This document shows positions 20,832-59,179 of a stretch of 64,000 nt of DNA, piece by piece (position 1 is the stretch's first letter; every line of letters begins with the position of its first letter). The notes under the pieces were generated by a model. The model was not told where the DNA came from and did no database searches. It saw nothing but the letters and a program-made list of their open reading frames with translations. The DNA comes from Endomicrobiales bacterium (GTDB lineage Bacteria > Elusimicrobiota > Endomicrobiia > Endomicrobiales > CAWCFT01): assembly GCA_963794945.1 (NCBI GenBank), contig CAWCFT010000018.1, positions 3,479 through 67,478 of the forward strand. The letters are read 5' to 3'. The position numbers were made by a program, and so were the translations under genes.

Positions 20832-20912
20832 ATGAACTTCAACAAATTCATTTCCATTATCACAACGGCCTGCTTCCTGGTGTCGTTTATAGCGTCGCCT
20901 GCTGTGCAGGCG
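20832..20912 (+). other. Sec-type signal peptide (or signal anchor) of B
   Basis: MNFNKFISIITTACFLVSFIASPAVQA|MQA; the core ITTACFLVSF is identical in A. Confidence 0.6.
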
Positions 20913-22238
20913 ATGCAGGCGCCAGTTCCCGGACAGCTGGATTTCAATAAAGCAGCGGAAGGGCTTAACCTACCCGGAACCGTTGGCAGAGTAACCGGCG
21001 GCAAGATTTTTGGAGACGGCCTTCTGGTAATAAATATTCAGGACTTGCACTGCCATGCGGAAGTGCAGAAAAATATAAGCCGCATACTCGAAATGATAGA
21101 AGCGCAGTACGGGCTAAAGAATGTCCTGGTGGAAGGCGCGGCAGGAGATGTGGACACTTCCTGGCTTACCAGCCTTAAAGATAACGCTCTGAAAAAAAAG
21201 ATAGCCGAAACACTGCTTAACCAAGGCAGGCTTACCGGCGCCGAGTATTATTCCGTTCTAAACAATAAGCCCCGCCTGCTAAAGGGGCTTGAAGATGAAA
21301 AGCTCCATACAGAGAACATCGCGCGCCTGGGCAAGATCCTTGAGCGCAGGCCGGTGTACGATCAAAAGATCAAAAAACTCACTGAAGACCTTAACTTTTT
21401 AGAAGCTAAATATTTCAGCTCACGAAACAGGAAGTTCAACAAAGCTCTCGAAAGCTATAAAGAGGGCGGAATGACTCCTGAAAAGTATTACACGCTTCTT
21501 GTCAAATACGCTGAAAAAATAAACAACGGTTCCAACCCTTTCAACCCAGTATTGGCTATAAGGGTAAAGGACTATCCAAATATAGCCGGCTATCTAAATA
21601 TGATTGAAGCTGGCAAGCGTATAAGATACAACCGGGTAGGATACCAACTGCAGGGTTTTGTACAACAACTGAAAGCCAAACTACCCTACAATGAATATAC
21701 TAAACTGATAGAAAAAACAAACAATTTTGCGAAGCTTGACCAGGCCTACCTATCGCTGGCCCAGATATCAGAACAGTACCACATGCATCTTGAAGGCGAA
21801 TATCCAGACCTTGCCGCTTTCTTTGAGTACCTTGAAAAGGGGCGGAAGGTCAACCCGATGGCTTTGATAGATGAGGAGAGGCGGCTTACTGAAGCCGTGC
21901 GCATAGGCCTTGCGCGAAATGTTGCGGAATTAGAAGTGTCATTTGCCGCTGATTTCTTCGTGTGTTTTAAAGATTACCTGCTCAACAGGCTTTCCGCGGA
22001 TGATTACGAGTATTTCACCCAGCGGTTCGATAAGTTCAAAACTATCTGGGGCAAGTACGTTTACGCGAACCGCCTTAATGATATGTCTGCCGATTTCGCC
22101 CTTCTTGATGAGTTCTACCGCGTTAACAACGAACGCAGCCGCAGCTTTTACAGAGCATGGCAAATTGCATTAAGTGCCCTTCAGCAGGGGAAGAAAACCC
22201 CAGCTGCACGGATGTTACAGCTTCCCTCCCCCGGCTGA
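20832..22238 (+). CDS. Giant gene B, segment 1 (signal peptide plus the N-terminal domain shared with A)
   Basis: ORF track gives 20760..22238. I place the start at the ATG at 20832 (MNFNKFISIITTACFLVSFIASPAVQA), where the alignment with the A start begins. The segment is alignable to A along its whole length. Confidence 0.85.
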   Translation: MNFNKFISIITTACFLVSFIASPAVQAMQAPVPGQLDFNKAAEGLNLPGTVGRVTGGKIFGDGLLVINIQDLHCHAEVQKNISRILEMIEAQYGLKNVLVEGAAGDVDTSWLTSLKDNALKKKIAETLLNQGRLTGAEYYSVLNNKPRLLKGLEDEKLHTENIARLGKILERRPVYDQKIKKLTEDLNFLEAKYFSSRNRKFNKALESYKEGGMTPEKYYTLLVKYAEKINNGSNPFNPVLAIRVKDYPNIAGYLNMIEAGKRIRYNRVGYQLQGFVQQLKAKLPYNEYTKLIEKTNNFAKLDQAYLSLAQISEQYHMHLEGEYPDLAAFFEYLEKGRKVNPMALIDEERRLTEAVRIGLARNVAELEVSFAADFFVCFKDYLLNRLSADDYEYFTQRFDKFKTIWGKYVYANRLNDMSADFALLDEFYRVNNERSRSFYRAWQIALSALQQGKKTPAARMLQLPSPG

Positions 22239-31200: not shown

Positions 31201-34200
31201 CTGTTGAAAGAGATTATTCTGTCAACATTGTTTGATAAGAACGCCAAGGCATTAGAGCCTAAAGTTCGCGCAAACGCGTGGGTTTATGTTCAAAACAAAT
31301 TGGCCGAAGCCGACTTGCGTATTTTAAGGGAACGCATAAAAATACTTAAAGGGCCGTCGGTCAAATCAGGTAAAATGCTAAATGTTCTTAATGCGCTTGA
31401 TGCTATGGACAACTTTGACATTCAAAAAACCAACGTAATCTTATCTCAAGCTAAGGATTTATTAGACATATTGCAGAATAAATATGGAAATACTTTTAAT
31501 AATAGCGTAGAAGATACGTTGAAATTATGGTGCATACAAAACAGCAAGATAAGCTCTGCGGCAGGCATCGATAATAACTTTGAAGCGCATTTTGATGCGG
31601 CAATTATATTTGCAAAACTGATTATAGCGGTGTGGTATGACGAAAACAACACCAAACGCAGCCCTGAAGATATGCAAACAATACTCAGCTACTTACAGAT
31701 TAAGGGCAGGCTGCAATTAATATCACAGCAGCATAGCAAGGAACAAGTCAAAGAAAACGAGCAGGGACAGGACACATCCAATCATCTGGGTATCGGCCTT
31801 GAAGCAATTATCTGGGCCGCTCAAGGTATATTAACTATAATGCCCGGTGTAGAGCAGTCGGCGCTGACAGCTGTTGAACTCGCAAAGTCTATTATCAGAG
31901 GAGCAGTGATCGTTTCGAACAGCGGCGGCTTCGCCCGCGAATCAACCTATACGCTTGATCAGATTGTCCCTGAGCTGGCGCGCGACATAGAGTATTACAA
32001 CACACTCTGCCCAGTCAACGGTTTAAGGCTTTCAAAAGTGAAAGTTCTTGAATCGAAGTCTGACTATATAGCCACCAATGACAGCCTTGGTTTCGCCAGC
32101 ATGGAAACTCTGGCTTTTGACGAAGAGACAATGACAGTAAAAACAGCCGACAATAAGGGTAATCTCAAGACACTTACGGACCGCCTGCGCCACGAGTTTA
32201 ACGAGAATATGGCCATGAATATTGAAGGTTCGGTTCAATTCGCGGCTTTGAACTATTTCCTGGTCAAATCCCATGTAGCCAAACCCCACATGCCGAGGGG
32301 CAACTTGAGCGGGGAAGAGCTGATAAACTGCTGGCACGCGTGTGAAAGCGACATTGCCGGGAACCAGGACGAGTACAGGGAACTGTTTAAAAACGATAAA
32401 GACCTGGAAGCAATTGAGAGGCTAATCGCTTTCGCGAACGAAGACTCTACAAAGCTGTTAAAAGTTTATAAGTCACTTTCCGAAATTATCGCTGGGCTGG
32501 CAAAATCAGTCCTCGCAAAACCAGTCGTTGTTGACAAAGTTGAAAAGCAGCCGCAAGTCTTCTCCAAATATATTCCAACAATCCCCCCAGGCGCGTTTAA
32601 CGCTCTTACCAGCCCGGAATTCAAAAAGACAATCGACAGCCTGACGCAGGAGGTCAATGACCCGTATAGTAAAGTTGGGATAAAAAGGCAAAGCATCATA
32701 AAACAAAGCGGCCAGCCTCTGGAAAAGTATAAAAAATTTATGCTGTGGCAGGGAGAGCAAAAAGGCGTCCGCGGAAAAGGGATGTTTTCGTGCGCCGGCA
32801 GGTTTAATTCGTTCAGGCCGTTCGCTGAGTCCGAAAATATCACCGATGTTTATTCCAACGGCCCTGAATATTTTGGGAATACAAACGATATTATAGAAGA
32901 ATACAGCGCAAAATACGATGATAGATCCTATATACTTTCAGGGATCCAATATGAAACATATGATGAAGGAAAGGCGGCCTGGCCTAAAAAGGCGCCGGGT
33001 ATAATAGCTATCGCCAAAATCATATCTTGGCTGGGCGGCGCTATAGACGGCGTGTATTATTTTGACGTAGATGAAACGGGCAGATTTAGTTTTGTCAATA
33101 AAAATGAAACCATTTCCGGCAGCAGGCACAACGCGGTAATTGAATTTACAGTAAACGGCGTGAAAAAGCGATTCTGGTATACGCAGCTGGATGCCAAAGC
33201 GTTGACAGATAATAATAAACGCTATATAGACAGAATCGGGTTCGACAATTTCCTGGTAACCGGCCTCAACGGGTCTATAATGTATGCTGACGATAATGGA
33301 GTGCGGGATTATGACGACCTGTTAAAAATCCGGTCAAAAAACACTGGTGAACAAGAGAGATCAAAGACAATAATAGAGCTGCAAATGGCTGCAGCGGTCA
33401 GAAACGGAGCGCTTGTAACAATAGATGTTTATAAGTTCGAAGGCGAAACGGCTTATCGTCTATGCTACAGAGGCTATCCGGTAAAAACGATATTGCTTAA
33501 ACCCGGTCAAAATTACGGCTATAACACCGGAAAGGCTGGAGGGAAAATATATTTCCTCCGCAATGCCGAAGGCTTGATAGGCTCACAATGGCGGCGCAAC
33601 GACATCAACCTCAATGACAAGCCTAATATATTAAGACAAACACTGATGTTTTTATTGATACCTTTTTTCGCTTTTAACTCATACTTCCCGCAGCTAAAAG
33701 CAGCTCCGCATGATACCGCAGTAACGAGCAAGCTGTCTGCGGCATATCTGTACAGGGCAAGCGCCGGAAAGGCTATTGACTGGCTTGCGCGTGGTTCGGA
33801 ATACGCGCGTATGAAAGGATTCCTGCAAAGGTATTTTGATATCGAGAACCCTGCCGCTGATATGCAGGCATTGATCAAACGCGCATCGCGCGGGTTTGAC
33901 AGCGACATGGAAACCCGGGCGGTTGACCTTATCAACAAAATGAGAAAAGCCGTACCTGACGGTTTTGTTTTTTCGAAGCTTGGCGCGGGCGATTTTTCGC
34001 TATTGATGCACATTCTCAGGAACCCTGAACTTGAAATTCTACTATTTGATAGGGAAACGCTTGAAGTGTATTTATCAGAGAATATTATAGGAGGCGTCCC
34101 CGCCGCGCAATTGTCTAATTTGCAGATGCTTCGTATATATCTGATCTCCGAAGCACTAAGCGATTATGCCCCGGTCTCAACACAGGACTCGCTCGCAAGA

Positions 34201-37200
34201 ATCATCTACAAAAATATGCAGGAAACTGACAAAGGCAATAAGAACGGCATATCGGGCAGGGCTGTTTTTGAGCAGGGAAATATAGGTTTTCATGAGGGAA
34301 ACCTCAACTTTGGTGAACAAGGGGAAATATTTTCACCTGATATTTTGTGCGCTTTAGATATAGATGTTCCTGATTCGGCAGCAGCAGGAATAAGCGAGCT
34401 TCCACGCCTGGTTATTAAAACTCTCGGGCATCCCTACGGTTATGACGAAGTTATTGATGTCAACAGCCTAAAGGCCGCCGTTATCATAAGCGGCAAGGAT
34501 GAATCGGGACAGCCTTACAGCATAAATCTGGGAGAGCGTATTTTGTCATGCGATGAGAACAGATCTGCTCCTGCAGAGCAGCCGGAGCCTGAAGAAGATA
34601 CAACTTACCCTGCAATAGATCATATCGCTGCAACCGGCAACCATCTGGGTATCGGCGGCGAAGTTGTTCTCGGGGCCGTTAATATCATAACCGATTCGAT
34701 TTTGGAAATTTTTATGCAGCTGCCCGGAGCGGCCGAGGCGCAGTTAACCGCCGCCCAGCTGGTTCAGGAATTAACGGATTCGTTCATAAAAAGAACGAGC
34801 CATGAGGAATTTTATCCCGCTAAATACTACTTGCCCGAAGAACTTGATACCAAACTTGCCCGAGATATAGAATACTATAACTCGTTCCGCCCGGACGGCG
34901 GTGAAAAACTTGAGAAAATATCGGTTGTCGAATCGAAAACGGGATATATCGCAGCTGAAAATGGGCTCGGTTTTGCCAGCATGGAAAACCTTGCTTTCGA
35001 TAAGAATACAGTTATTATTAAAACGGCTTACAATAACGACCGCGCAAAAACACTGGCCATGCGGATAAGGCATGAGATCAATGAGAATATGGCAAGGAAC
35101 GTCGCGGGCTCCGTGCAGTTTACAGCGCTGGACCATTTCCTTGCCAAAGCCCACCGAGCCCGGGACAGCCTGAGTAATGACGAGCTGACAAATCACTGGC
35201 ACGAGTGTGAAAAGGATATTGCTGGTAACCAGGATGAATACAAAGCGCTTTTCAAAACTGCGCAGGATACAATAGCTATTGACCGGCTTATCAGTTTTAC
35301 CCTGAAAGACCTCAAACAGCTCAAAAAGTCCGGCAAATCCATACCTAAAATCTTCGCAAAATTTATCCGGTTTTTCCTTGAGAGCAGGCGGATAGAGCTC
35401 CCCGATGAAATATCCGCGGCTATAACATCCAAAATTATTGATTACTTCGATAGCTTAAAACCATCTGTAAAACCGCCCGCCGAGATGAAGCTTGGTGAAT
35501 TTGCCGATCCCGCCGATCTTTATTCAGCGATGAAAGCGGCAATCGCGAAAAACGCTGCAATAAAAGGAAAATCATTCGATTTTGCTTTGCTTGACAAGGC
35601 ATACAAGCTTGTGATCGATGAGCATGGAACCCCGGACCAGCGCCGCGGTGACGGGCGGCCGTATTATTTCCATCCCCTTGAAATAGCATACTACATATCG
35701 GTTGACCTGGAAAAAACCAATCAAAACCTTATTCTAGCGGCTCTTTTGCATGATATAGTAGAAGATGATACATCTATTTCATATGATGACATACCAAAAT
35801 TGTTTAATAAAGATGTCGCTGATATCGTAGATGACCTGACACATAATGACAACCTCAGCAAAAACAAGGGACGGCTGTACAAGCGCCTTGAACACATAAA
35901 TCGTATATTGACGAAAAGCAACAAAGACAGCATCTTGATAAAGGCTGCCGACCGCCTGCACAACCTGTTAACCGATGCAAGGGCTCCTCATCCAAAAGCC
36001 GGATATATGGACCTTATTGAAACACAACAGTGGATGAAATTTGTCATGCGGCCTGAGGTTCCCGGGCCATTAAGAAGACAACTTCTGTTATTGTTAGAGT
36101 CAAAACTCAATGACCAGATAATCAATGAGCCTCTGTCTCCGGAAGCCGCTGCGGCCACCGGAAGTACGGTAACAAACCTTTTGCCGGGAGAAACAGCTGA
36201 TTACTTACAAAAGTTAACCGCTTTCGCTGACGAATACCAGCTCCTTCGCACACTGATCCCTGTAAAATCCAATGAGAATAACGAAATACAGCTGGCGAGT
36301 GCTGGCGGCATGCAGTGGCCTGAGCTTACTAAAAAGCTAAACCATTTTAGTTGTCAGGCAACCATTATAGACCGGAATGTTATCGCGCCATATGAACAGC
36401 CCGGCCTGATAGACGCTCATTCCGCTTTATCAAGATTGATCGGCTACGGAGTTGAGAGTTTCGATAAATACCGCGCGGTTTACTACGCGGCGCAAAACAC
36501 CGACTTTTTAAATGCTCTTAAGGGTTACACGTTTGAAACATTCCCCTGGCAAAAGCTCTGGGGCCCTTATTTTAAAGAGGCATCAATAGCCTGGGCAGTC
36601 AGAAACCTTATCGGCACCTCGGCGGCATTTGAAGAGTTTAAAGTGTTAGCAAGAGACTCGGCTCTCATTCGGCTTATCAATTCTGAGTCAAGAAACAGGA
36701 GGCTCTATTTTGATTCCGAGATCCTCTATGTGGACGGTGTTTATACGATACCCGTCGCGTCGATTAAACCACTCCCCGCTGAAAAAATAGTTATCTTAAC
36801 ACCTCTGGGCCCTTCTTCCCGCCAGGTTTGTATTGAGCCTGTACTGCTGCGGCTGGGTAAATTTCTACGGGAACGCGGCTGGAATCTACATGTCAACTGG
36901 GGCTCGATGCCGGCAGGCTACGATGGTTTCAGCATTGCAGGTGCCCAGGGTATTTTCGATAATAACGCAAATATTCCGGCCGGTAATATTACTCCAGCCC
37001 ATTTGGAGGAAATAAACCGGCTCAAGAACGTTTCAGAAGAATCAAAGGGAACTCCTTATACATTTCAGCCGGATTTTTTCTACCCAAGTTACTTCGCCAA
37101 TGAAATGCCGCGGGCGATACTTGCCAACTTTGCCGAGCTTATGGACCATGTCCAGTTCGCCTTCGCGGACAGCTCAAGGCTTCCAGCCGCAGGATTCACC

Positions 37201-40200
37201 ATTAAAGATCACGAACCCGTTGAGATAGATGGTTCCATAATTGAAGTGCCGGGCAAAGCCCGCGCTAAGATAACAGTCACAACTACTATAACAATTTCCC
37301 AAGATATATCGTTCGTTCAGATGTTGAGTCTTGTAACCGCGCTTTATCAGGATATGCTCGACAACAGCCGGGAGAAGAGCGCACACTACAGAGAGCTGCT
37401 GCGCGGAAAGATCAAAGACGTTGAAAACATAGCGAAAAATATTATTTACGCTGCAAATTATCTTGAAACTTTGAAATCCGTATGGCCGGAAACACTCGGG
37501 CTTGATACCGGTAAGTCAGCTGAATTCACAGGGTATCTAGACCAAATGATAAGTGGTTTCCGTAAGCTTACTAAAGGATACAAAATACGATCGGCAGATC
37601 CTTTGCAAGCGCAGAAGGAGATAGCCGAGAACTGGCTTGGCGTTGACCAGGCCTGGCTAGATTCCATTATAAAACGTTTCCCCAAAGAAAATCGGCTGGG
37701 AGCTGTTAAAACTCTGTTTGCCGCGAATCAGAGCCGATGGGAGCGCAGCATCGCTTACGAAATGGCCGCGCCAGCCCGTGAACTTGATGCCGCTGTATTG
37801 GAAAAAGGCGGCAGGCTGCTTGATACGATAAAAAGCAAGCCGTCACTAACACGGAGCATAATAGCATTGATTTACGGTTTATTTAAGCCGGGATATAAAA
37901 TGCCTGAAACCTTGCTCGAGGAGATCGATGAAGCGGTTGCCGATAAAACCAGAGGTATGGATAAAACCAGCCCTGCGTTCGCAAAAACACTGATGTCTAT
38001 TGTTGAGAACAGGGTGCACAAATATTATGATATGTTGCTTTTTAGCGGCAGCGCATTCAATAGTTCTAGTTTGCGCCTGTTTGCGGCAGAGCTTGGCGTT
38101 AACCCGCAAGTCCTTGCAAAGGTGTATGAAATATCCCCGTCACGCATTGTTGAAACGCGGCATATGGCATGTATTATGCAAAACTACCTGTGCGGCAGGA
38201 TACTTCAGCAAAAAGGATTTCAGGTGTACTGGGCTAATGTACACGAAGACGCAAACAGTGAACAAATTGTTCATTCCGTTATACTTGCAAAGCTTCCAAG
38301 CGGTCTTTACAGGATCATCGACGCTACCGCTATTAAAGGTTCGGGCGAAATTTCAGCGAATTATCTCGCACCCGGTGAAGTTGAGCAGAGGCTTAAAGAA
38401 TCCCCGGTATTTTCTAAAACACTTAACATCAACAGCCGGTCTCTGCATCACTTAATAAGTGTATTTGCTTTTGAGGAAGGCGCGCGTACAACTATTTATA
38501 ATAACCTTGGGCTGGTAATCAAGGCTCAGAATAAATTCTCGGAAGCCGAAGCGATATTCAAAAATACCAGGATAAATAACGATAATTTCGAGGCTTCTTA
38601 TAACCTCGGGAATTTATATTTCAACCGGGCGCGCTTCGATGAGGCTGAAACTGCCTACAAAAATTCGTTAACAGTGTATCCCAAATTTGTTGGAACATGG
38701 AACAACCTGGCTGCTGCGCTGGACGAACAAGGCCAGCCCGATGCAGCTTATATTGCAAACAGTTACAAGTATCGCTGTATAAACGGAGAACTAATTGATA
38801 TTAAGAAGGCCTTTGCCGAGATCGATAATGCAAAGGAGAAAACTCTCCCCGAATTTTCTGCGCCGGATAGTGACGATAATTCACGGACTGGCAAGACCAG
38901 CTCATTTTTTGGCGTTGCCAAGAAGGCACTAATGTACATCTCATCCGTGTTCGCTATGCTGGCGTTTACGGTGCATATATCTAACAACCACATTTTCGAA
39001 ACGACAGTGCCAAACAAAACAATGCCTGCGCTGATAAAAAACACTGCATCTAAACAAACTGCTGCCGTTTCCACAATTAACGAAAGAATTAATTCGATCA
39101 ATGCCACTTCTTCAAGCGCAGGCCGGTCACATATAAATCAGCTGTTTTTACACCCAGCCCCGCCCCAATATTTCGCGGACACCTTACCTCGCCAAATGCT
39201 TGCATATTTTGCCGAGCTTATGGACCATGTTCAGTTCATCTTCGCTGAAAACAATGAGCTTCCAGCCTGCGGTTTCATCATTGAAGAACACTCGCCGATC
39301 GAAATAGACGGAACTATAATCGATATGCCTGGAAAAGCCCGCAGAAAGGTCACCGTTAACACCACGATCACAATATCTGATGATATATCATTTGTTCAGA
39401 TGCTGGGCCTTATTACAACGCTTTACCAGCAAATGCTTGACAATAGCCAGGGCAAGCCAGAACAATATAAACAGCTTCTGCATGACAAATTAAATAATAT
39501 CGATAACATCGCAAAGAATTTTATCTATGCCGCTGAATATCTTGACACTGTTAAAAGTTCCTGGCCAGAAAAACTGGGCCTTAACACAACTGAAACCATC
39601 CGGTTTGATAATTACATTGAATATGTTATAAACGGCCTGCGCAAACTGGCTGGAGGTTACGAAATTGCACACCAGGATTCGCTTGCTGTTAAAAAGGCAG
39701 CCGCTGAGGCCTGGCTGAGCATTGACCAGAACTGGCTTGACAGCATACAGAACCGTTTCCCCGAAGATCCGGCTAAACGCTTGGAATTTATTATGTCCCA
39801 GCTCAACGCAAAACAAGACGCCTGGGCCCGCGAAGCCGCGGACGGGCTGGCCTCCCCAGCCCGTGAGCTCAATGCCGCGGTTATGCAAAGAGGCGGGAAC
39901 CTGCTGTTAGACAGCCTTAAGAGTAAAGCCGACCCGGCCAGAACGCTTATACAAGAGATCGATATTAAGATCAAAGAGTTCCAGCCAACGGATCCGGAAT
40001 ATACAAATAAGCTTATATCTATCGTTCAGGACAATGTCAAGCCTTACTTCGACAAGACTCTTTATGATAACAATCCCAAAGCATTCAGCGAAAGTTTACA
40101 AAAGTTATCAACGGATCTCGGTATTAGCCCTCAAACGCTCGCGCTTTTGGGTGAAATATCCCCCACGGAAATTACCGAAACAAACCACATGGTATGTGTG

Positions 40201-41355
40201 ATGAAATCGTATTTATGTGGCCTTATATTGGAGCAATATGGTGTGCCTGTTTACTGGCTGGATGTAGTGAAAACGGTAACAGATGCAGAGGAAGTTCATG
40301 TTAGTATACTCGCCAGGCTTCCAAACGGCCTTTACCGCATAGTGGACGCCGCTTTCCCGAAAGGGTCGGGAGAAGTGCCTGAGCAGTATTTAACGGCAGG
40401 AGAAGTCGAAAAACTACTTACAAAATCACCCACAGTAACTAAAACGCTCGATATTAACAGTAAATCGCTCCATCACGTAATAAAGATCTTTCGGTCTTTT
40501 GAAGCCGGCGCGCGCGGAAGCGTTTATAAAAATCTCGGTATCATTTTTAATTCGCTTAACAGGTATGCCGAGGCAGAGAAAGCCTTCAGAAAAGCCTTGG
40601 ATACCGATTCCCAGGATTTCTTGTCTTGGAGCAGGCTCGGTTCCTCGCTTTTACGGCAGAATAAATTTGCCCAAGCAGAGGACGCATTCAAAAATTCTCT
40701 GAAAAACAATCCTGGAAATATTAATGCCTGGAACAGGGTTGCGATCGCTCTATTAAATCAAAATCAATCCGTTGCAGCGCAGATAGCGCGCGATTGTTGT
40801 GACCGTTTATTGAAAGGCGAACAAATTGATATCAATAAGGCTTTTGCCGAGATCGACGCGGCAAAAAAGAAAGTATTTATTTCCGGACTTGGCTTTAACT
40901 TTGACCTTGAAGGTTATCAGGCCTTCCTAGGCGCCCTGGGCATCGGCCTTGACGTTACCGCGGCTGGCTTTGCGCAAGCCGTCATCAAACAATTCACAGG
41001 TGATAACGGCGCCGATATCGTTACTCCCGAAAATGCTTCGCCTGAAGGAAAGCAGGCTCTTGATAACGCTGGCAGGCTTTCTGTTGAACTATCCGGATAC
41101 CTAAAGTCAAAGAATATCTCTTCCACCGCGCGCGTCGTTGTTACAAAAGGCGATAATACCTTCGTTAAATTCGGTAACCGCGTCTGCGGTATGCCGACAT
41201 TCCTTCGTAAAGCTGATGACGGCTCTTTAACGCTATATATACACCAGGAATTCCTTAATGCCCTGTACGCTGAGCAGGCGAGACACGCTAAAGAAAGGGC
41301 TGCCGCTTCTTCCAAGAGGCGATATCATCGCCCAGTTCGTTGGCGAAGAAGTTGA
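28192..41355 (+). CDS. Giant gene B, segment 4 (4387 codons). Holds repeats X2, Y2, X3, W1, Z2, W2, the SpoT-type HD domain, V1, V2 and a degenerate Y3.
   Basis: Uninterrupted 13.2 kb ORF overlapping segment 3 by 68 nt. The Y1-to-X2 junction repeats the in-frame Y2-to-X3 junction found inside this ORF. Confidence 0.92.
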   Translation: MIFSLFLAARLAKKETLILKNHNTGNNMGLITGGQNDDILSRCIENNGENLSFPFLKKLLYYMTGFSIAGTGAVSDVPETINNIPSQIKKEDARIALFCQTLDGKNTYGMPTLQNMATAGEILNSKEQCYAGVVWQGEERNELYIVAVPVSETNIYNLQLGILGQYLITIAKFERTQKNMSSTEISAVKQNIFAAASSVLSQMGTRAYSLTIDPQNGTAIKPFPLESLVSVIYESSVRQSLMGMFKKMQESTSEQALSKLQGPTADEGDVLSVMLINFTRNKDRLLEQSCYRTYKEIVDDMFKQYQYFEIHAYYAYIAQIVAKHCEKSDLPANLKKQFKDIILSTFFDKNGKALKPYLAVAPEYYVLNKLAEADILVLRERVKTLKGPTLRSGQILNVLEILDEMDSKDLQKVIIVLEDAMIWIDFLSIAGDSFNVNMDVMLPNWCLQYFIKNGTDINSNNLQTYEYAIYATARLIAAVRYDENNHKRSPEGLETILSYIKLKARYQLIAQQQKQNSGNSDNLFSALSVVAEEALNLTGGALEQELQKISVKIGRLFSWHFAVNSHAEALKQMFIDKGRAYGINADNIIIKPITKFEQFTDAKGKTRLSVSRFVPEDGKYVLYIHQRFLDALFSMTEEQKNDIYEQYHCGPPETFAIEEVQEFAEIQKLVQLGVSFDKAYEQYHTANPHHNVFTETALQTAAKQIDVLKRCIENNKNNLALPLRKLRYYSTGFSISDSGEVSDVPETVNGIPWQIDIPDARVALFWQKLDGKDKFGMPTPADILTAAGSLAGKEPRYAGVVWQKEAQGNLYIVVVPVSANNNYESALRTLSKYLSDIAAFEGQEKVINSADPFPEEQDAYMLASMLLSQMGARAYSVTIDPENGAAITPMSQESLVRAFYKPSEEQTDSEQPDKRQTNISEKTLFNLRGPHTDEGDLLGVLLLSFTKNTGLLLEEPCFVIYKDILTDTIKQKIYIDIHEDYSSVEKIVDRRCDESVLPANLKRLLKEIILSTLFDKNAKALEPKVRANAWVYVQNKLAEADLRILRERIKILKGPSVKSGKMLNVLNALDAMDNFDIQKTNVILSQAKDLLDILQNKYGNTFNNSVEDTLKLWCIQNSKISSAAGIDNNFEAHFDAAIIFAKLIIAVWYDENNTKRSPEDMQTILSYLQIKGRLQLISQQHSKEQVKENEQGQDTSNHLGIGLEAIIWAAQGILTIMPGVEQSALTAVELAKSIIRGAVIVSNSGGFARESTYTLDQIVPELARDIEYYNTLCPVNGLRLSKVKVLESKSDYIATNDSLGFASMETLAFDEETMTVKTADNKGNLKTLTDRLRHEFNENMAMNIEGSVQFAALNYFLVKSHVAKPHMPRGNLSGEELINCWHACESDIAGNQDEYRELFKNDKDLEAIERLIAFANEDSTKLLKVYKSLSEIIAGLAKSVLAKPVVVDKVEKQPQVFSKYIPTIPPGAFNALTSPEFKKTIDSLTQEVNDPYSKVGIKRQSIIKQSGQPLEKYKKFMLWQGEQKGVRGKGMFSCAGRFNSFRPFAESENITDVYSNGPEYFGNTNDIIEEYSAKYDDRSYILSGIQYETYDEGKAAWPKKAPGIIAIAKIISWLGGAIDGVYYFDVDETGRFSFVNKNETISGSRHNAVIEFTVNGVKKRFWYTQLDAKALTDNNKRYIDRIGFDNFLVTGLNGSIMYADDNGVRDYDDLLKIRSKNTGEQERSKTIIELQMAAAVRNGALVTIDVYKFEGETAYRLCYRGYPVKTILLKPGQNYGYNTGKAGGKIYFLRNAEGLIGSQWRRNDINLNDKPNILRQTLMFLLIPFFAFNSYFPQLKAAPHDTAVTSKLSAAYLYRASAGKAIDWLARGSEYARMKGFLQRYFDIENPAADMQALIKRASRGFDSDMETRAVDLINKMRKAVPDGFVFSKLGAGDFSLLMHILRNPELEILLFDRETLEVYLSENIIGGVPAAQLSNLQMLRIYLISEALSDYAPVSTQDSLARIIYKNMQETDKGNKNGISGRAVFEQGNIGFHEGNLNFGEQGEIFSPDILCALDIDVPDSAAAGISELPRLVIKTLGHPYGYDEVIDVNSLKAAVIISGKDESGQPYSINLGERILSCDENRSAPAEQPEPEEDTTYPAIDHIAATGNHLGIGGEVVLGAVNIITDSILEIFMQLPGAAEAQLTAAQLVQELTDSFIKRTSHEEFYPAKYYLPEELDTKLARDIEYYNSFRPDGGEKLEKISVVESKTGYIAAENGLGFASMENLAFDKNTVIIKTAYNNDRAKTLAMRIRHEINENMARNVAGSVQFTALDHFLAKAHRARDSLSNDELTNHWHECEKDIAGNQDEYKALFKTAQDTIAIDRLISFTLKDLKQLKKSGKSIPKIFAKFIRFFLESRRIELPDEISAAITSKIIDYFDSLKPSVKPPAEMKLGEFADPADLYSAMKAAIAKNAAIKGKSFDFALLDKAYKLVIDEHGTPDQRRGDGRPYYFHPLEIAYYISVDLEKTNQNLILAALLHDIVEDDTSISYDDIPKLFNKDVADIVDDLTHNDNLSKNKGRLYKRLEHINRILTKSNKDSILIKAADRLHNLLTDARAPHPKAGYMDLIETQQWMKFVMRPEVPGPLRRQLLLLLESKLNDQIINEPLSPEAAAATGSTVTNLLPGETADYLQKLTAFADEYQLLRTLIPVKSNENNEIQLASAGGMQWPELTKKLNHFSCQATIIDRNVIAPYEQPGLIDAHSALSRLIGYGVESFDKYRAVYYAAQNTDFLNALKGYTFETFPWQKLWGPYFKEASIAWAVRNLIGTSAAFEEFKVLARDSALIRLINSESRNRRLYFDSEILYVDGVYTIPVASIKPLPAEKIVILTPLGPSSRQVCIEPVLLRLGKFLRERGWNLHVNWGSMPAGYDGFSIAGAQGIFDNNANIPAGNITPAHLEEINRLKNVSEESKGTPYTFQPDFFYPSYFANEMPRAILANFAELMDHVQFAFADSSRLPAAGFTIKDHEPVEIDGSIIEVPGKARAKITVTTTITISQDISFVQMLSLVTALYQDMLDNSREKSAHYRELLRGKIKDVENIAKNIIYAANYLETLKSVWPETLGLDTGKSAEFTGYLDQMISGFRKLTKGYKIRSADPLQAQKEIAENWLGVDQAWLDSIIKRFPKENRLGAVKTLFAANQSRWERSIAYEMAAPARELDAAVLEKGGRLLDTIKSKPSLTRSIIALIYGLFKPGYKMPETLLEEIDEAVADKTRGMDKTSPAFAKTLMSIVENRVHKYYDMLLFSGSAFNSSSLRLFAAELGVNPQVLAKVYEISPSRIVETRHMACIMQNYLCGRILQQKGFQVYWANVHEDANSEQIVHSVILAKLPSGLYRIIDATAIKGSGEISANYLAPGEVEQRLKESPVFSKTLNINSRSLHHLISVFAFEEGARTTIYNNLGLVIKAQNKFSEAEAIFKNTRINNDNFEASYNLGNLYFNRARFDEAETAYKNSLTVYPKFVGTWNNLAAALDEQGQPDAAYIANSYKYRCINGELIDIKKAFAEIDNAKEKTLPEFSAPDSDDNSRTGKTSSFFGVAKKALMYISSVFAMLAFTVHISNNHIFETTVPNKTMPALIKNTASKQTAAVSTINERINSINATSSSAGRSHINQLFLHPAPPQYFADTLPRQMLAYFAELMDHVQFIFAENNELPACGFIIEEHSPIEIDGTIIDMPGKARRKVTVNTTITISDDISFVQMLGLITTLYQQMLDNSQGKPEQYKQLLHDKLNNIDNIAKNFIYAAEYLDTVKSSWPEKLGLNTTETIRFDNYIEYVINGLRKLAGGYEIAHQDSLAVKKAAAEAWLSIDQNWLDSIQNRFPEDPAKRLEFIMSQLNAKQDAWAREAADGLASPARELNAAVMQRGGNLLLDSLKSKADPARTLIQEIDIKIKEFQPTDPEYTNKLISIVQDNVKPYFDKTLYDNNPKAFSESLQKLSTDLGISPQTLALLGEISPTEITETNHMVCVMKSYLCGLILEQYGVPVYWLDVVKTVTDAEEVHVSILARLPNGLYRIVDAAFPKGSGEVPEQYLTAGEVEKLLTKSPTVTKTLDINSKSLHHVIKIFRSFEAGARGSVYKNLGIIFNSLNRYAEAEKAFRKALDTDSQDFLSWSRLGSSLLRQNKFAQAEDAFKNSLKNNPGNINAWNRVAIALLNQNQSVAAQIARDCCDRLLKGEQIDINKAFAEIDAAKKKVFISGLGFNFDLEGYQAFLGALGIGLDVTAAGFAQAVIKQFTGDNGADIVTPENASPEGKQALDNAGRLSVELSGYLKSKNISSTARVVVTKGDNTFVKFGNRVCGMPTFLRKADDGSLTLYIHQEFLNALYAEQARHAKERAAASSKRRYHRPVRWRRS
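28306..29757 (+). repeat. Protein-level repeat X, copy 2
   Basis: ILSRCIENNGENLSFPFLKKLLYYMTGFSIAGTGAVSDVPE..YAGVVWQGEERNELYIVAVPVSE..MGTRAYSLTIDP..LQGPTADEGDVLS..LPANLKKQFKDIILSTFFDKNGKAL.. Confidence 0.85.
29758..30280 (+). repeat. Protein-level repeat Y, copy 2
   Basis: LFSALSVVAEEALNLTGGALEQELQ..IIKPITKFEQFTDAKGKTRLSVSR..KYVLYIHQRFLDALFSMTEEQK..CGPPETFAIEEVQEFAEIQKLVQLG..AYEQYHTANPH. Confidence 0.9.
30307..31779 (+). repeat. Protein-level repeat X, copy 3
   Basis: DVLKRCIENNKNNLALPLRKLRYYSTGFSISDSGEVSDVPE..YAGVVWQKEAQGNLYIVVVPVS..MGARAYSVTIDP..LRGPHTDEGDLLG..LPANLKRLLKEIILSTLFDKNAKAL.. Confidence 0.85.
31780..32520 (+). repeat. Protein-level repeat W, copy 1
   Basis: NHLGIGLEAI..LARDIEYYNTLCPVNGLRLSKVKVLESKSDYIATNDSLGFASMETLAFD..LTDRLRHEFNENMA..NCWHACESDIAGNQDEYRELFK.. 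Confidence 0.85.
32572..33620 (+). repeat. Protein-level repeat Z, copy 2
   Basis: IPTIPPGAFNALTSPEFKKTIDSLTQEVNDPYS..FMLWQGEQKGVRG..FNSFRPFAESENITDVYS..APGIIAIAKIISWLGGAIDGVYYFD..HNAVIEFTVNGVKKRFWYTQ..FDNFLVTGLNG.. Confidence 0.85.
33640..33687 (+). other. Hydrophobic (TM-like) segment after Z2
   Basis: TLMFLLIPFFAFNSYF. Confidence 0.45.
34639..35450 (+). repeat. Protein-level repeat W, copy 2
   Basis: NHLGIGGEVV..LARDIEYYNSFRPDGGEKLEKISVVESKTGYIAAENGLGFASMENLAFD..LAMRIRHEINENMA..NHWHECEKDIAGNQDEYKALFK.. Confidence 0.85.
35578..35990 (+). other. RelA/SpoT-type HD ((p)ppGpp hydrolase-like) domain embedded in B
   Basis: ..RRGDGRPYYFHPLEIAYYI..LILAALLHDIVEDD..SYDDIPKLFNKDVADIVDDLTH..ILIKAADRLHNLLT. 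The H...HD...D order and the ADRLHN motif are characteristic of the SpoT/Mesh1-type hydrolase domain. No synthetase domain follows. Confidence 0.8.
37075..38841 (+). repeat. Repeat V, copy 1 (unassigned N-part, then transglutaminase-like Cys-His-Asp core, then TPR)
   Basis: FFYPSYFANEMPRAILANFAELMDHVQFAFADSS..DGSIIEVPGKARAKITVTTTITIS.. The candidate triad is ETRHMACIMQNYLCGRIL (Cys 38170-38172) .. IVHSVILAKLPSGLYRIIDAT. TPR-like repeats lie at about 38480-38760. The copy ends at KKAFAEIDNAKEK. Confidence 0.85.
38896..38988 (+). other. Internal signal-peptide-like / signal-anchor-like segment preceding V2
   Basis: TSSFFGVAKKALMYISSVFAMLAFTVHISNN: a KK n-region, a hydrophobic core and a small-residue c-region, in frame inside the 4387-codon ORF. 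Confidence 0.55.
39142..40872 (+). repeat. Repeat V, copy 2
   Basis: LFLHPAPPQYFADTLPRQMLAYFAELMDHVQFIFAENN..DGTIIDMPGKARRKVTVNTTITIS..ETNHMVCVMKSYLCGLIL..VHVSILARLPNGLYRIVDAA.. TPR-like repeats lie at about 40520-40790. The copy ends at NKAFAEIDAAKKK. Confidence 0.85.
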
Positions 41356-41400
41356 CGAGCTGTTTGACATCGAGAACCTCTTATCAAACCAACATCTTTC
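41000..41400 (+). repeat. Degenerate repeat Y, copy 3 (crosses the segment 4/5 frame break)
   Basis: ..RLSVELSG..GSLTLYIHQEFLNALY.. then, in the next frame, ..AQFVGEEVDELFDIENLL.., collinear with the Y1/Y2 elements LSVSR / LYIHQxFLxALF / AxEExQExAEIQKL. Confidence 0.5.
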
Positions 41401-44400
41401 TTCTGTTCAGGCTTATTTCCAACACCACAATCAGCGGGAAAACTTTCCTCAAGCCCATAACGGTATCATAACATCTATCGCGGAACAGACCGGCCTTACT
41501 GTCCTGGGTGTTGAAGATAACATCAATAACCAGCCAGGTGGATTCATTAGCGCTGCCAAGAAGGCGCTAATGTACGTCGCCTGCTGCTTCGCAGCGCTGG
41601 TGTTCATGATCAGAATTTCAAACGCTCAAACAAATACAATAACCTTGCCTTATAACAATAATATTGCGCTAAGTAAAGACTCCTTGGTGAAACCGGGCCC
41701 TGCCAATCTTTTCAACTATGAAAATCGGTTGTTCTTGCATCCTATCCCGCCTGGATATTTCGCGGATACAATACAACGCAAGATGCTCTCCTATTTTGCC
41801 GAACTTATGGACCATATCCAGTTTGTCTTCGCCGACAGTTCCGAGCTCCCGGCTTCGGGATTTACAATAAAAGACCATGCCCCTATTATAGTTGACGGTA
41901 CTATTATAGATGTTCCGGGTAAAGCTCACAGGAAGGTCACTGTGACCACTACTATCACCTTATCAAAAGATATATCGTTCGTTCAGATGCTGAACCTCGT
42001 TAGAACGCTTTACCAGCAAATGCTTGACAACAACCAGGGCAAGACTGAACAGTACAAGCAATACATTCAGCAGAAATTAAATAATATCGATAATATCGCG
42101 AAGAAGTTTATATATTCTGCCGATTATCTTGACACTGTTAAAAATTCCTGGCCGAAAGAACTGGGCCTTAATTCGAACGAAACGCTGCAGTTCATAAATT
42201 ACATTGATTTTGTCATAAACGGCCTGCGCAATATGGCTGGAGATTACGAAATTGTTCACCAGGACCAACCGGAAACCAGAACAACAACCGCTGAAAATTG
42301 GCTTGGCGTAAACCAAGATTGGATCAATAGTATTGTGAACCAATTTCCAGGGGATTCTTCAAAGCGTATGCAATTCATTATTCAGCAATTCAATGCAAAA
42401 CAAGATTTCTGGGCCCGCAATGCCGCAGACGGACTTGCCGCCCCCGCGCTGGAGCTTGACGCCGCGGTAATGGAAACTGGCGGGAGGCTGCTGGACGGCA
42501 TTAAAATTTTTGGCGATACATCCGTGATGCTAAGCAATGTAGTAGCCAAAAAAATGAAAGGTATATCTCCATCGGACCCGAAATACACGGATAAAATTAC
42601 GGAGCTGGTGCAGAAAAAAGTCGGGGAATACATAGATACAACCCTGATGAGCAGCCATCCTGAAAAATTCACTGAATTATATAAACAGGCCGCTGAAACT
42701 CTAGGAGTTAACCCGGCCGTAATGGCAATTCTGGGAGAGATATCTCCGGCCAATATAGTCGAAACACAGCATATGGTTTGTGTTATGCGAGCCTGCCTGT
42801 GCGGCAGGATACTGCAGCAGTATGGCATCAGGGTTTACTGGCTGGATGTTCAAGAAAGGGTAACCGGTGAAGAAGACGACCATGTCGCTTTACTTGCGCA
42901 GCTACCGAACGGGCTGTACCGGATAGTAGATGCCGCTGTCCCGCAAGGCGCCGGGAATGTGCCAAAGCAATATATCGCGGCAGGAGAAATAGAAAAACTG
43001 CTTGCAAACACGCCTGTCATTACAAAAACACTTGATACCACCAGCAGCCGGCTTCATCATATCATAAGGATAACCGATTTTGATGCCGGCTTACGGTCCA
43101 GCGTGTTTAACAATCTTGGCATTGCCCTTTCCAAAATGGGGCATCACAGTGAAGCCGAGCTGGCTTATAAAAAATCTTTGGAGATTAACTCCATTAACGC
43201 TTCCGCGTTGGCAAATTTGGGGCTAGCATATTTTCATATGGGGAGGCTCACAGATTGTGAAAATTGTGTTAAAAAAGCGGTTGAGATAAACCCGCGGTTT
43301 TATATGGCGTGGTATAAACTGGCTGTCGCGCTTTTCGGCCAGCAGCGATATGCCGAATCCGACCAGGCACTTAGAAAGTGCCTGGAAATAAACCCTCAAT
43401 TTACCTCATCCTGGAGTAAAATGGTATCGACTCTTAGCGCCCAGCAACAACCCGCCGCAGCAAAAATTGCGGGTAAATATTGCGTTCGATCCATGGCGGG
43501 TGATCATATTAACCCGAAATCAGCCTTTGAAGAGATAGATGGGGCAACAAGCCACACGACGCTGGCAAATATTAATAAACTTGGCATCAATCGGCAGGAT
43601 ATCGATGTTATCGCCATCGCGGCCATGGAAATATTAAACCAGCTGCCGGCAACCGCAAAACTGCAGTTAACCGCTGGTCAATTGGCTCAGGAATTACTTG
43701 AACTGGGAGCTGACATAGCAACAGTAAAGGAGTTTAATTCACAAACCGTTTACAACCTTGAAGACCTTGACCAGGAGCTTGCACGGGATATCGATTATTA
43801 TAACGCTTTTTGCCCGGTAGGCGGGATAAAGCTGACAAAATTATCTGTCACTGAATCATCAGCCGGCTACATAACATTAAAGGACAGCTTTGGATTAGCG
43901 AGCATGGACAGCATTTCTTTCAATAATGATACAGCGAACATAAAAACAGCCAACAACAAGAATAATCCTAAAATACTGACAAACCGCCTCAGGCACGAAT
44001 TCAACGAGAATATGGCCGAGAATATAATTGATTCTATTCAGTATAAGGCGCTTAACCATTTCCTCGGCAAAATACACGCGGCCCGTAACAATTTAAGTAA
44101 TGCTGAACTGACAAATTACTGGCATGAGTGTGAAGTCGACATCGCGCGGCATCAAGGTGAATATAGGGCGCTGGCCAAAACGGGCCAGGAACAGCCCGCG
44201 GCCGAACGGCTTATCGCTTTTGCTAAAATTGATTCAAGGCAGATAAAACTTGCTTACAGGTTTATCGCTAAGATCTTTGTTGATCTGCTCAAGACACTGC
44301 TGCAAAACAAACAGATAGAGCTTCCCGCCGAAACATCAGCGGGCATTGTCCTGATAATTCAAGGATTGTTTACGCAGCATTGGAATAGGTCAAAAACAGA

Positions 44401-47400
44401 TCAGCCAACCGGCTCAACTGAGGCTGACTCCGGACTACCAGGCAGTGATGAAACGGTGCCGGAACAAAACACCGGCGATGGCCGTATCCCAGCGTCAAAT
44501 GTTACGGAGTTCGCCGCTAATCGTCCTACCGCAGAAGAATACGCTAGAAAACTTGTCGCTGACAAACAACTAACGCTCACAGCGGACGATGGCAAGCAGT
44601 TCCGCTTTGTCTATGAAAACATGCCTTCCAATGAATTTAAGCTTATAACCTATGACAATATGACTAATGAACAAGTTGGATTTATAGATGTCCGCGGCAA
44701 TCGCATAGATTCTGCTTTTAATGAAATATTTATTGGTGAACCGGCCATAGTAGTGGACAATAGGTATAATGAGCGATACCGCGGTATCGGCTCAGCTCTT
44801 TTGCGGCTTTCAATGTCGGTGACAAAGAATAATGGGTATAAAGAGTTTGATGTCTTATACGGCAGTAAGGCGGCAAAGTTTTATAGAAGCGCTGGTTTTG
44901 AAGAGATAAATCATGAAACGGGCAAATTTTCTTTCGATTTTACAAAGAAAAAAATAGGCGGAATTCTGCTCGAATACTTTCCTAAACCCGAATTTCTGGT
45001 AAATGAGATCGCTAAATTAAGGAAAATAGACTCAGCGGCCGCGGACATCCTTCTGAAGCGTTTGGGGATGACTTCCAGGGCTGACAAAGATGGTTTGCGG
45101 TATTTAAACGAAGATATTCAGTGGTTCAGAACACATAGAAAAACTAAAGACGGTGTGTATTTTGACCCTATCGATAAAAACAACCCTAAAGTGTCCGTTA
45201 TTTTACTTCATTATGGGAATTCAGTTAAAGATACATTACAGGCCCTCAACAACCTTTCACTGAATACCTATCCTGATCTTGATGTTATTCTCGTAGACAA
45301 CAATTCTCCCGTTCCGATCGAACAGAAAGATATCTCCGCCAAAATAGCGGATAAGTTAAAGATAAAGCTTATTAAGAGCCCCGTGAATCTCGGTTACTGC
45401 GGGGGCAATAATATGGCCGCGCGCGCAGCTCTAAACAACGGCGCGGACTATGTTTTCCTGTTTAATAATGACGGCTTGATAGAAAAAGACGGGATACAGA
45501 AAATGATAGATAAGCTCAAGGGCCATCCTGAAATCGGGGCCATACAGCCAAGCCTTTATACAACCAATGAGCTCAAAGAAATAAATGAAAAGGGTGTTCT
45601 GCCGGAAGAACAGGGCACGGATGCATTAAACAGGACTCTTGAATTCACTTACGGCTTGGAAAAAACCAATACCGCTTCAAAATTATCCGACAACTTGTAT
45701 CAAAAAGAAATATCCCTGCTGGGCACCGCGCAAATGGTCCGGTCGGACATGATCCGTTTGAGCGGCATGTTCGATACAAGGTTGTTTATGTACGCGGATG
45801 AGGCTTACCTGGGTTATCGCTATAGCATGACCGGCCTGAAAATGGGAATGGTAACCGATGTGTTTTTTGCTCATCCGCCTTTTGCGGCCATTGAAACCCC
45901 GAAAGTATACAGTGAATACCTCATCTGGCGCAATTATATGTTTGATGCGGAATATCTTTACAATATTGACGATATGGGAAAAAGGGCGGTTAAAAACCTC
46001 TTTGGGCCGCGTAACTTGTTCATATCAAATGATGATGCAGTTTGGAGAATGGTGGAAGAAAGCGCCAATGAAAACGACATATTGCTTATTGCGGTAGTAA
46101 AGGGCATGTTTGACGGAGTTATGGGACAGTATTCGCCAACTGTAGAAGGGCAAAACATGGACGAGAAAAAGCAGATCGCGACGTATTCAAAAGAGTTCGA
46201 GAAAATGATCGATGTTAACGGGATTTTGCTTAGATTGATAAATGAAACCGATCCATATCAATCAAGGCTTATGATCTGGGGGCTGAATGCCGCCGACAGC
46301 AAGATACATAATATCGGCCAATTGGACGGTATACAAAGGCAAAAACTAATCGACACACTGAAATATTATGTGTCAGAATGGAGAGATTGGGTAAAAACAA
46401 AACATAGAGACCAATCGGCAATAACAAAAATAAGAAACGAATTTAAAAATGAACTTCTGGGTAAGATTAATGTATTCACACCGTCAGAAACCCTCGGGCA
46501 TGAGCAATATTTAGACAGGTATTCCGATAAATCTAATATTAACGATGAAGCTTATATGCAGGTGGCCCTTAACGAGTCGCGCAAAGCCGGCATCGAACGC
46601 TGGTTGTTTACAGCTTGTGTCGGCGCGGTTGTGGTAAGCGGCAAAGGCATTATTGTGGGCAGAGGGTATAACCGCATGTTCTCGCAGTTCCATGCGGAAC
46701 ACTATGCCATACTTGACGCGCTGTTTGCGCGCGTGGAGTCGCTTGCCGAAGGAAAACAGAAAGGTATAATGCGTAGCCGCATTAATGAAATACTGCGCAC
46801 TGCGAACATGCCCCGAGCGCCCGATTATTATGATAATCTCGATGCGGCTATCACAGCGTTAAACAGGGATTTGGGCGGTGTTTTGCAAAATTCTCCAATT
46901 TATGTGACTATGCACCCCTGCGATAAGTGCACAAATCTCATAATGTCTTTGGGTATGAAGCGTTTGGTTTATGGCGCCGAAATGCCGGGAGGCTCATTAG
47001 ATAACGGGAAAAAGTTACGAAACGCGGGGATGGAAACTACCGGCGGTGTTTTGGCGCGGGAGTCACGCACTGTAATGACCGGATACTTTCTGCTCAAAAC
47101 CTATTTTTCATATATTCACGAGCTTATCCAGCGCCTTGAGCGTCAGATTATATCGCGCCGGCACTCCGTTTTAACTGCCAATGAAATGGCCTCTCTCAAT
47201 AAGCCTGTTGAGCTGTCAAAAACCACCGGATTAAATGTAACAGATGAGAACGAAAAAAAACCATCCACCCCGATTATAACTACCGAACCTGAAGAAGTCC
47301 TTCCAATAGTGCGAGGCCGGTCATGGCAGGATAGAATTTCTTTTATCAGCAAAATTGAACAAGAGGGGTTAGTGAACAATAGTTTGCGTATGGAATACGC

Positions 47401-59166: not shown

Positions 59167-59179
59167 GCTACAGGCACAT

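Follow-up and report, generated by a model that had tools for sequence, protein, structure and literature searches.

Three paralogous thiol-enzyme-like/TPR modules, two of them preceded by possible membrane helices, in a giant multi-enzyme gene of an Endomicrobiales bacterium

The DNA analysed here (the window) is a 64,000-nucleotide stretch of contig CAWCFT010000018.1 in the GenBank assembly GCA_963794945.1 of an Endomicrobiales bacterium. It contains a giant multi-domain gene (28192–50692, +) that appears as two huge open reading frames (ORFs), ORF D (p1; 28192–41355, +; 4387 aa) and ORF E (p2; 41258–50692, +; 3144 aa). Pfam identifies HD_4, two GNAT, GT2 and dCMP/cytidine deaminase domains in D+E, and self-comparison reveals repeated modules designated N, Y, X and Z, together with a C-terminal transmembrane (TM) cluster at p2 residues 2499–2601. 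Three further modules (V1, V2 and V3) are the subject of this report. We lean, somewhat past an even balance, towards a reading in which these are three paralogous modules of a thiol-enzyme-like core joined to tetratricopeptide repeats (TPRs) within one giant multi-enzyme protein, and in which the hydrophobic segments that precede V2 and V3 are membrane helices rather than relics of secreted proteins.

Sequence comparison indicates that ORFs D and E are one gene. The frame break lies at 41307/41308, at an indel-prone site (41296–41308, +) within a stretch comprising a Y′ module and linker (40873–41554, +) that extends from V2 to the second hydrophobic segment and is homologous to p1 residues 517–694 and to the upstream ORF C. 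Deletion of a single T at 41307 restores the sequence ..AAALPRGDII.. and gives a single ORF encoding a protein of 7,472–7,499 aa. The homolog P0001 (MEI8218330.1, from an Elusimicrobiota metagenome-assembled genome [MAG]) is continuous across the D/E junction (..ALYAEQATRLQQQSSALPRGDLLDQFVTEEVDELF..), and in tblastn its residues up to and including 410 align in frame 1, ending at 41307, and those from 411 onwards in frame 2, from 41309. A second assembly of this organism, independent but noisy (L001; ENA ERZ25039472; 99.3% identical), lacks both A41296 and T41307. An earlier note on this DNA, made from the letters alone, had spoken of a repaired protein, and this is borne out by the uninterrupted homolog and by the assembly that has one T fewer exactly at the junction. 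An indel error is the likeliest cause of the break, since the window holds other split genes (PFK, MacB and a response regulator). A programmed +1 frameshift at 41307 is an alternative that we rejected, because no recognisable slippery site was seen by eye, other genes in the window are split, and L001 differs by one T.

Pairwise BLASTP within the D+E product shows three paralogous modules of ~600 aa in the interval 37063–43555 (42–56% identity, E-values down to 0). V1 is located at 37063–38841 (+; p1 residues 2958–3550), V2 at 39139–40872 (+; p1 residues 3650–4227) and V3 at 41726–43555 (+; p2 residues 157–766), with extents taken from the BLASTP self-matches, the alignment and Pfam TPR matches and, for V2, also from an AlphaFold2 (AF2) model of the core. 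Each module is composed of a lineage-restricted ~330-aa N-domain, an alpha+beta core of ~120–165 aa, and three to five TPRs with a conserved capping helix. The N-domain and core occupy ~37063–38466 in V1, 39139–40491 in V2 and 41726–43075 in V3, and the TPRs and capping helix 38467–38841, 40492–40872 and 43076–43555, respectively (all +). Each core runs to ..HHxIxI, and at most ~15 residues separate this point from the TPRs. Behind each core TPR_1, TPR_2, TPR_17 and others exceed their Pfam gathering thresholds (TPR_1 scoring 78.7 and 72.9 bits relative to a cut-off of 27.8), with matches at p1 residues 3445–3519 (V1) and 4111–4197 (V2) and p2 residues 617–714 (V3). For the N-terminal ~330 aa and the core of the window copies nothing significant was found in Pfam, NCBIfam or a PDB sequence search; the NCBIfam matches are TPR-driven only, and one to ‘C39_PA2778’ is confined to the TPR part. 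An AF2 model of the whole module from a three-sequence alignment has a predicted local distance difference test score (pLDDT) of 54, and Foldseek searches with it were uninformative for the N-domain.

The core contains the motif HM-x-C-x-M ... LCG ... VH ... LP-GLYRI-DA, which is invariant in all three copies and can be written more fully as ET-x-HM-x-C-x-M ... LCG-x-IL ... VYW ... H ... LA-x-LP-x-GLYRI-x-DA. The candidate catalytic triads are Cys3327 (38170–38172), His3361 (38272–38274) and Asp3377 (38320–38322) in V1; Cys4002 (40195–40197), His4036 (40297–40299) and Asp4052 (40345–40347) in V2; and Cys508 (42779–42781), His542 (42881–42883) and Asp558 (42929–42931) in V3 (all +). Those of V1 and V3 are assigned from family conservation, and those of V2 correspond to C132, H166 and D182 in the AF2 core model. 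In an alignment of 13 family sequences with 30–55% overall identity, Cys, His and Asp are present in every sequence covering the position (12/12, 11/11 and 10/10, respectively). The first Cys (HMxC) is the catalytic candidate, as the Cys of LCG is not conserved in relatives. Cys and His are 34 residues apart and His and Asp 16 residues apart; such spacings are typical of transglutaminase-like and arylamine N-acetyltransferase (NAT) enzymes. Three homologous modules, their make-up of an unknown domain, a Cys-His-Asp core and TPRs, and the conserved Cys, His and Asp of the motif had all been described in the earlier note, and each part of that description holds, with the TPRs above Pfam gathering scores.

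A fold of the papain/transglutaminase/NAT kind is a probable assignment for the core. An AF2 model built from the 13-sequence alignment (pLDDT 72.7; predicted template modelling score 0.71; block-mean pLDDT 78–95 over residues 131–240) has a helix at residues 128–145 with C132 near its start, a strand at 163–172 that includes H166, and a strand at 178–181 followed by D182. The Cys thus lies at the N-terminal end of a helix; of the strands that follow, the second bears the His and the third is immediately succeeded by the Asp. In the model this is the layout of papain/transglutaminase/NAT-type thiol enzymes. In a Foldseek search of the PDB with this model about 22 of the top 50 matches are clan-CA-type thiol enzymes, including the amide synthase GdmF (NAT fold, probability 0.93), arylamine NATs, the Rad4 transglutaminase domain, USP28, USP36, Josephin clippases, and the putative cysteine proteases 3isr and 3kd4. 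The low-confidence whole-module model provides an internal control, in that Foldseek returned none of these thiol-enzyme neighbours with it. The Pfam family DUF553 (‘Transglutaminase-like domain’; PF04473) is matched by three of the 13 members (best E = 4.2e-4), and the match spans the Cys-to-Asp stretch.

Several results weigh against a firm assignment. No Foldseek match to the PDB has E ≤1e-3, the best being 4e-3 with TM-scores of ~0.3; the DUF553 match of the P0005 core (18.1 bits) is below the gathering score of 20.5; and the model does not discriminate between a protease and an acyltransferase, its best structural neighbours being acyltransferases. The window copies themselves have no DUF553 match in Pfam, PDB sequence searches with module profiles yielded nothing meaningful, and the viral structures of BFVD no informative match. 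The fold is therefore supported rather than proven, since every sequence and structure match falls short of a curated or conventional threshold. The papain/transglutaminase-like core proposed earlier accordingly has moderate support: AF2 topology, Foldseek neighbours, the weak DUF553 matches and triad conservation favour it, with all scores below threshold. In the structural comparison the transglutaminase-like proteins (Rad4, 3isr, 3kd4) are among the neighbours and BTLCP proteases are absent from the top 50.

The Foldseek results also raise the alternative that the core is an acyl- or acetyltransferase of the NAT/amide-synthase type and neither a peptidase nor a transglutaminase. Its highest-probability matches are indeed to GdmF amide synthases and NATs, over ~215 columns that include the helices before the Cys helix, and Acetyltransf_2 (PF00797) is matched in Pfam by one of the 13 members at E = 0.19. 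An hhalign alignment with Escherichia coli NhoA, although not significant (probability 2.7%), matches the family Cys to C69 and the family His to H107, the NAT catalytic residues. However, none of these matches is significant, the sole Pfam family matched by several members is the transglutaminase-like DUF553, and fusion to TPRs points to protein or peptide substrates, such that we regard a transferase of this type as unlikely.

Many members of the transglutaminase-like superfamily are pseudo-enzymes, and the V modules might similarly be non-catalytic binding scaffolds, as in Rad4/XPC or many SirB1-type proteins. The architecture parallels that of YchA/SirB1 (the domains of E. coli YchA were confirmed), and the catalytic activity of the V modules is a prediction from sequence. 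Nonetheless, Cys, His and Asp are kept in every covering sequence despite overall identity down to 30–40%, a signature of catalytic constraint, and a scaffold seems quite improbable. A further part of this alternative is that the hydrophobic segments before V2 and V3 are buried helices with no membrane role; against this, neither of the two diverged copies has a charge in its 16-residue core, and the sequence on either side is low-complexity linker and not globular.

These segments are AKKALMYISSVFAMLAFTVHISNN before V2 (38917–38988, +), which can be parsed as AKK-ALMYISSVFAMLAFTV-HISNN with an uncharged 16-mer at 38926–38973, and AKKALMYVACCFAALVFMIRISNA before V3 (41555–41626, +), parsed as AKK-ALMYVACCFAALVFMI-RISNA with its 16-mer at 41564–41611. 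Their Kyte-Doolittle 19-residue means are 1.69 and 2.11, respectively, and in a Hessa-type scan (with scale values after Hessa et al. 2005) the V2 segment sums to +2.4 and ranks first in p1, and the V3 segment to +0.5 and ranks second in p2. The protein has four runs of at least 16 residues free of D, E, K, R, N, Q, H and P, as opposed to 1.0 expected in shuffled sequences (P ~0.02), and this pair, equivalently placed, accounts for two of them. The two segments share the flanks AKKALMY and ISN exactly and differ at most core positions, yet both cores stay uncharged and hydrophobic, which points to selection for hydrophobicity. The homologous hydrophobic segment noted previously before V2 and V3 is therefore confirmed by its shared flanks and top-ranking hydrophobicity. 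A comparable segment, KKRR-FITGAKITVLALVFTMLSMFTLGV followed by a P/Q-rich stretch, is present in the window's other giant ORF (1978–2061, −).

The segments belong to a linker unit and not to the conserved module. There is no hydrophobic peak in the 150 aa upstream of V1, and no hydrophobic segment precedes the V modules of the homologs P0001, P0003 and P0005, even though the Y′-to-V linker of P0001 is otherwise homologous to that of V3. The unit of ~15 aa, KK, the 16-mer, an S/T/N-rich tether and V is common to V2 and V3 only. This would fit a segment that originated in the linker prior to duplication of the V2/V3 unit, with loss in P0001 as the alternative.

The earlier note had offered, as one of two readings, that the modules were once separate secreted proteins that became fused, and one can extend this to V2 and V3 having been Sec-secreted or signal-anchored proteins, or to their still being cut or re-initiated and exported separately. 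Both segments have the tripartite look of a Sec signal, with KK, a 16-residue uncharged core and ISNA or ISNN, followed by an S/T/N-rich tether of a kind typical of exported or anchored proteins, and the length of the hydrophobic region equals that of the genuine N-terminal leaders in the window. The shared N-in charge bias also suits independent export better than a membrane hairpin. At the cleavage position, however, S-N-A of V3 is acceptable but S-N-N of V2, with Asn at −1, is atypical and not an AXA-type site, whereas the genuine leaders have clear AXA sites. The segments are ~3,580 and ~4,490 residues into the D+E ORF rather than N-terminal, and no start codon is found upstream of KK in either. 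The sole in-frame ATG is inside each segment (the Met of ALMY), with AAGAAGG 5 nt before it (38914–38934 and 41552–41572, +); this is a weak Shine-Dalgarno-like string in comparison with the real ribosome binding sites of the genome, and is fully explained by the conserved AKKALMY.

The distribution of related modules argues in the same direction. A search for stand-alone V genes, which the earlier note had proposed, identified two of 405 aa, P0009 and P0016, both with charged, non-hydrophobic N-termini and no signal peptide; P0016 has normal gene neighbours, and P0007 likewise has no leader. As the V1, P0001, P0003 and P0005 modules lack the segment too, the idea of formerly separate secreted proteins is not borne out, and we think it most unlikely.

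In the reading that we favour, the V2 and V3 segments would act as membrane-inserting or membrane-tethering helices, a role that we liken to that of isolated hydrophobic helices elsewhere in this genome's giant proteins. Isolated segments composed of basic residues, a hydrophobic stretch and a polar linker are present in the window's other giant ORF, and both p2 (at 2499–2601) and the relatives have multi-helix hydrophobic clusters. The difficulty for this reading is topology. The net charges flanking the segments, counted by eye, are +4 (N-side) versus 0 (C-side) and +2 versus +1, so that with basic residues on the N-side both should insert N-in/C-out; a Hessa-type scan found no further TM-like segment between them; and 16 residues is little for a core that spans the membrane. 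It is therefore not obvious how one uncleaved chain could adopt a consistent topology.

One solution is that both segments are single membrane passes of an uncleaved chain, placing V2 and Y′ opposite to V1, V3 and the cofactor-dependent domains. The chain would then return to the side of the GNAT, GT2 and deaminase domains, which need cytoplasmic cofactors; the hydrophobicity reaches the classical Kyte-Doolittle threshold of 1.6; and this genome's giant proteins, like those of relatives, have additional TM clusters. On the other hand, a hairpin requires its two passes to run in opposite directions, and the homologous segments share a positive N-side bias. Their 16-residue cores are also short, the Hessa-type sum of the V2 segment is +2.4, and homologous V and Y modules would have to work in two compartments. 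A two-pass hairpin is thus credible but doubtful. A more elaborate scenario, and a distinct long shot, is that the giant ORF encodes a bacterial polyprotein in which internal signal-anchors would pass every other segment through the membrane, in the manner of flavivirus polyproteins, with cutting by the V modules, and possibly by signal peptidase after ISNA/ISNN, releasing effector enzymes (HD, GNAT, GT2 and deaminase) and exported V modules on both sides.

As to function, the Cys of each V core would form an acyl-thioester intermediate, aided by His and Asp, with protein or peptide substrates that would be held by the adjacent TPRs, and the outcome would be either hydrolysis (as a peptidase or amidase) or acyl transfer. 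MARTX and polymorphic toxins contain internal cysteine proteases, offering an analogy with giant proteins that carry arrays of enzymes. The likeliest role would be the processing or modification of protein partners, possibly of the giant protein itself, and processing is the most attractive because the enzyme array resembles those of MARTX and polymorphic toxins and because peptidases have been noted in Omnitrophota giants. Self-processing by the V modules is nevertheless pure inference from this analogy, and no cleavage motif was identified for it.

The family to which the V modules belong is undescribed in Pfam and NCBIfam, extremely rare, and limited to Elusimicrobiota. An exhaustive hidden Markov model search of 1.84 billion representative proteins found 14 relatives, three of which are fragments of the same organism's protein; the named relatives are all Elusimicrobiota, Endomicrobiales or Ca. 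Liberimonas magnetica. Full modules are present in the giant proteins P0003 (4110 aa) and P0005 (2784 aa) and in P0001, a partial sequence, and P0006 (3878 aa) starts inside the module and has its C-terminal part only. A reduced form, with the core, TPRs and ~40 residues before them, is the stand-alone 405-aa gene (P0009 and P0016) with ordinary neighbours; P0007 (433 aa) is possibly a truncated ORF call. Because of this stand-alone form, the core and TPRs are an evolutionary unit in their own right, and the N-domain an accessory confined to giants. The P0016 and P0009 genes are followed by a conserved neighbour of ~200 aa (L002 4513–5100 and L003 1502–2122; 88% identical between the contigs) that contains a single hydrophobic stretch and is without a Pfam match. 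No homolog was retrieved by a word-index search with V2 and its leader as query, and the N-domain alignment retrieved nothing beyond a fragment of the protein in the window itself; V-module patterns had no relatives among the GTDB genomes and JGI metagenomes scanned, and the giant ORFs of the window had no record in exact-sequence look-ups.

The giant gene probably extends further upstream, into ORFs C, B and A. Open frames A (20757–22238), B, C, D and E overlap at every junction (22127–22238, 26502–26515, 28114–28259 and 41231–41355, +) and together span 20757–50692 on the + strand. The A/B junction is bridged by the homologs P0003 and P0005, and the C/D junction has the same make-up as a Y-to-N module junction inside p1, so A–E may be one gene of ~9,900 aa that is broken by indel errors and starts at 20832. 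A Sec-type N-terminal leader (MNFNKFISIITTACFLVSFIASPAVQA; 20832–20912, +) is located at this possible start. Within p2 there are two HxT motifs ~86 residues apart, HTHFTIVN (47498–47521, +) and VHMTIGN (47756–47776, +), with no Pfam match; they bear a tentative resemblance to 2H phosphoesterases.

A second giant gene (1660–12094, −) is split into two overlapping open frames, ORFs 9161–11989 and 1660–9153, and contains a Sec-type N-terminal leader (MNYKKLIAVITTACFLVSFVFGQAVHA; 11795–11875, −), an N-terminal domain, a radical SAM domain and three PGM/PMM domains, the last of which recall the metabolic-enzyme domains reported in Omnitrophota giants. Its leader and that at 20832 are family-specific, being nearly the same as the N-termini of the giants P0003 and P0005, and each is followed by a ~500-aa domain with a conserved HCHPEVQ motif and no Pfam match. 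The ORF at 52030–56334, which has an HATPase_c domain, is homologous in its C-terminal part (54946–56220, +) to the stretch C-terminal to the V-TPR module of P0003 and P0010, and modules have therefore been shuffled among giant proteins.

The locus is chromosomal, being accompanied by genes for a tyrosyl-tRNA synthetase (TyrRS), PFK, LpoB and a MacAB-TolC-like system; the TyrRS is 74% identical to that of an Elusimicrobiales MAG and 66–71% identical to those of Endomicrobiia. By Megablast the region had no counterpart in plasmid and phage collections. Ordinary genes are split or truncated at 17375–19684 (−) and 61194–62725 (+): PFK matches positions 1–196 of a 277-position profile, the response regulator only profile positions 52–111, and the MacB-type gene is present as two ORFs. 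Since several ordinary genes are affected, this suggests that the assembly, from long reads, is indel-prone. Just downstream of the giant genes are genes for an OEP (TolC-like) protein, an HlyD-type adaptor and a MacB-type ABC transporter (56763–62725, +). A link to type I secretion through the OEP and HlyD genes was considered and rejected, as the ABC component is MacB-type with an FtsX permease and not a type I exporter.

Elusimicrobiota are among the bacterial phyla most enriched in huge, uncharacterised proteins, none of which has an assigned function (PMC11573180). The V module is a recognisable and probably catalytic unit, seen in several such giants and also, reduced to core and TPRs, as a gene of its own. 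Should it prove to be an active cysteine peptidase or transamidase, one could begin to ask concretely whether giants are processed into smaller functional pieces, and each of the three copies offers a candidate catalytic Cys. The paired hydrophobic segments are likewise a simple entry to the topology problem of giant multi-domain membrane proteins, which has also been noted for the Omnitrophota giants (bioRxiv 10.1101/2023.11.21.568195). If the module is inactive or the segments are not membrane helices, the finding shrinks to an ordinary domain triplication.

Comparison with known systems places the V core close to several families without assigning it to any. With the transglutaminase-/papain-like enzymes of clan Peptidase_CA it shares the Cys-His-Asp order and the placement of these residues, with the Cys at the N-terminal end of a helix, the His in a strand and the Asp directly behind the next one, but it differs in having an extra invariant His three residues before the Cys and in standing behind an unrelated ~330-aa domain, embedded three times in a giant protein. 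The arylamine NATs and GdmF amide synthases (PF00797 fold) give the best Foldseek probability, over the ~215 columns described above, but their third domain is not recognised in the V core and NATs are not known to be fused to TPRs. The closest parallel in architecture is SirB1/YchA (Transglut_core2 PF13369 plus TPR_9 PF13371), in which a transglutaminase-like domain is directly followed by TPRs. SirB1 proteins are small, stand-alone cytoplasmic proteins, unlike the V modules, and tests of homology were negative, with no PF13369 match in Pfam at E up to 10 and an hhalign probability of 0.7% with E. coli YchA. LapG, a BTLCP that cleaves the giant adhesin LapA, is similarly a Cys-His-Asp thiol enzyme tied to giant proteins. 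BTLCPs are small periplasmic proteins with N-terminal signal peptides, however, whereas the stand-alone V relatives P0009, P0016 and P0007 lack signal peptides and the window copies are internal to a giant ORF; BTLCP (LapG-like, Peptidase_C93) also gave no Pfam match and no PDB sequence match. Membership of SirB1, BTLCP or NAT is thus not supported at the sequence level.

The host protein itself is most reminiscent of the Omnitrophota ‘archaeovorins’ and of MARTX and polymorphic toxins, with which it shares a very large ORF, many enzyme domains, isolated hydrophobic helices and internal cysteine-enzyme modules. The Omnitrophota giants are rich in TM helices and have peptidase domains that ‘might cleave the giant proteins’ (bioRxiv 10.1101/2023.11.21.568195), and PGM/PMM domains are a further likeness to archaeovorins, present here in the neighbouring giant ORF. 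The phylum and the domain set are different, processing is demonstrated in neither case, and Pfam finds no SecA-like, C39, S8 or CPD domains in the host giant ORF. The fold class and the combination of a transglutaminase-like domain with TPRs are already known, SirB1/YchA being an example; what is new is the N-domain, the triplication within a giant gene, and a family limited to the Elusimicrobiota.

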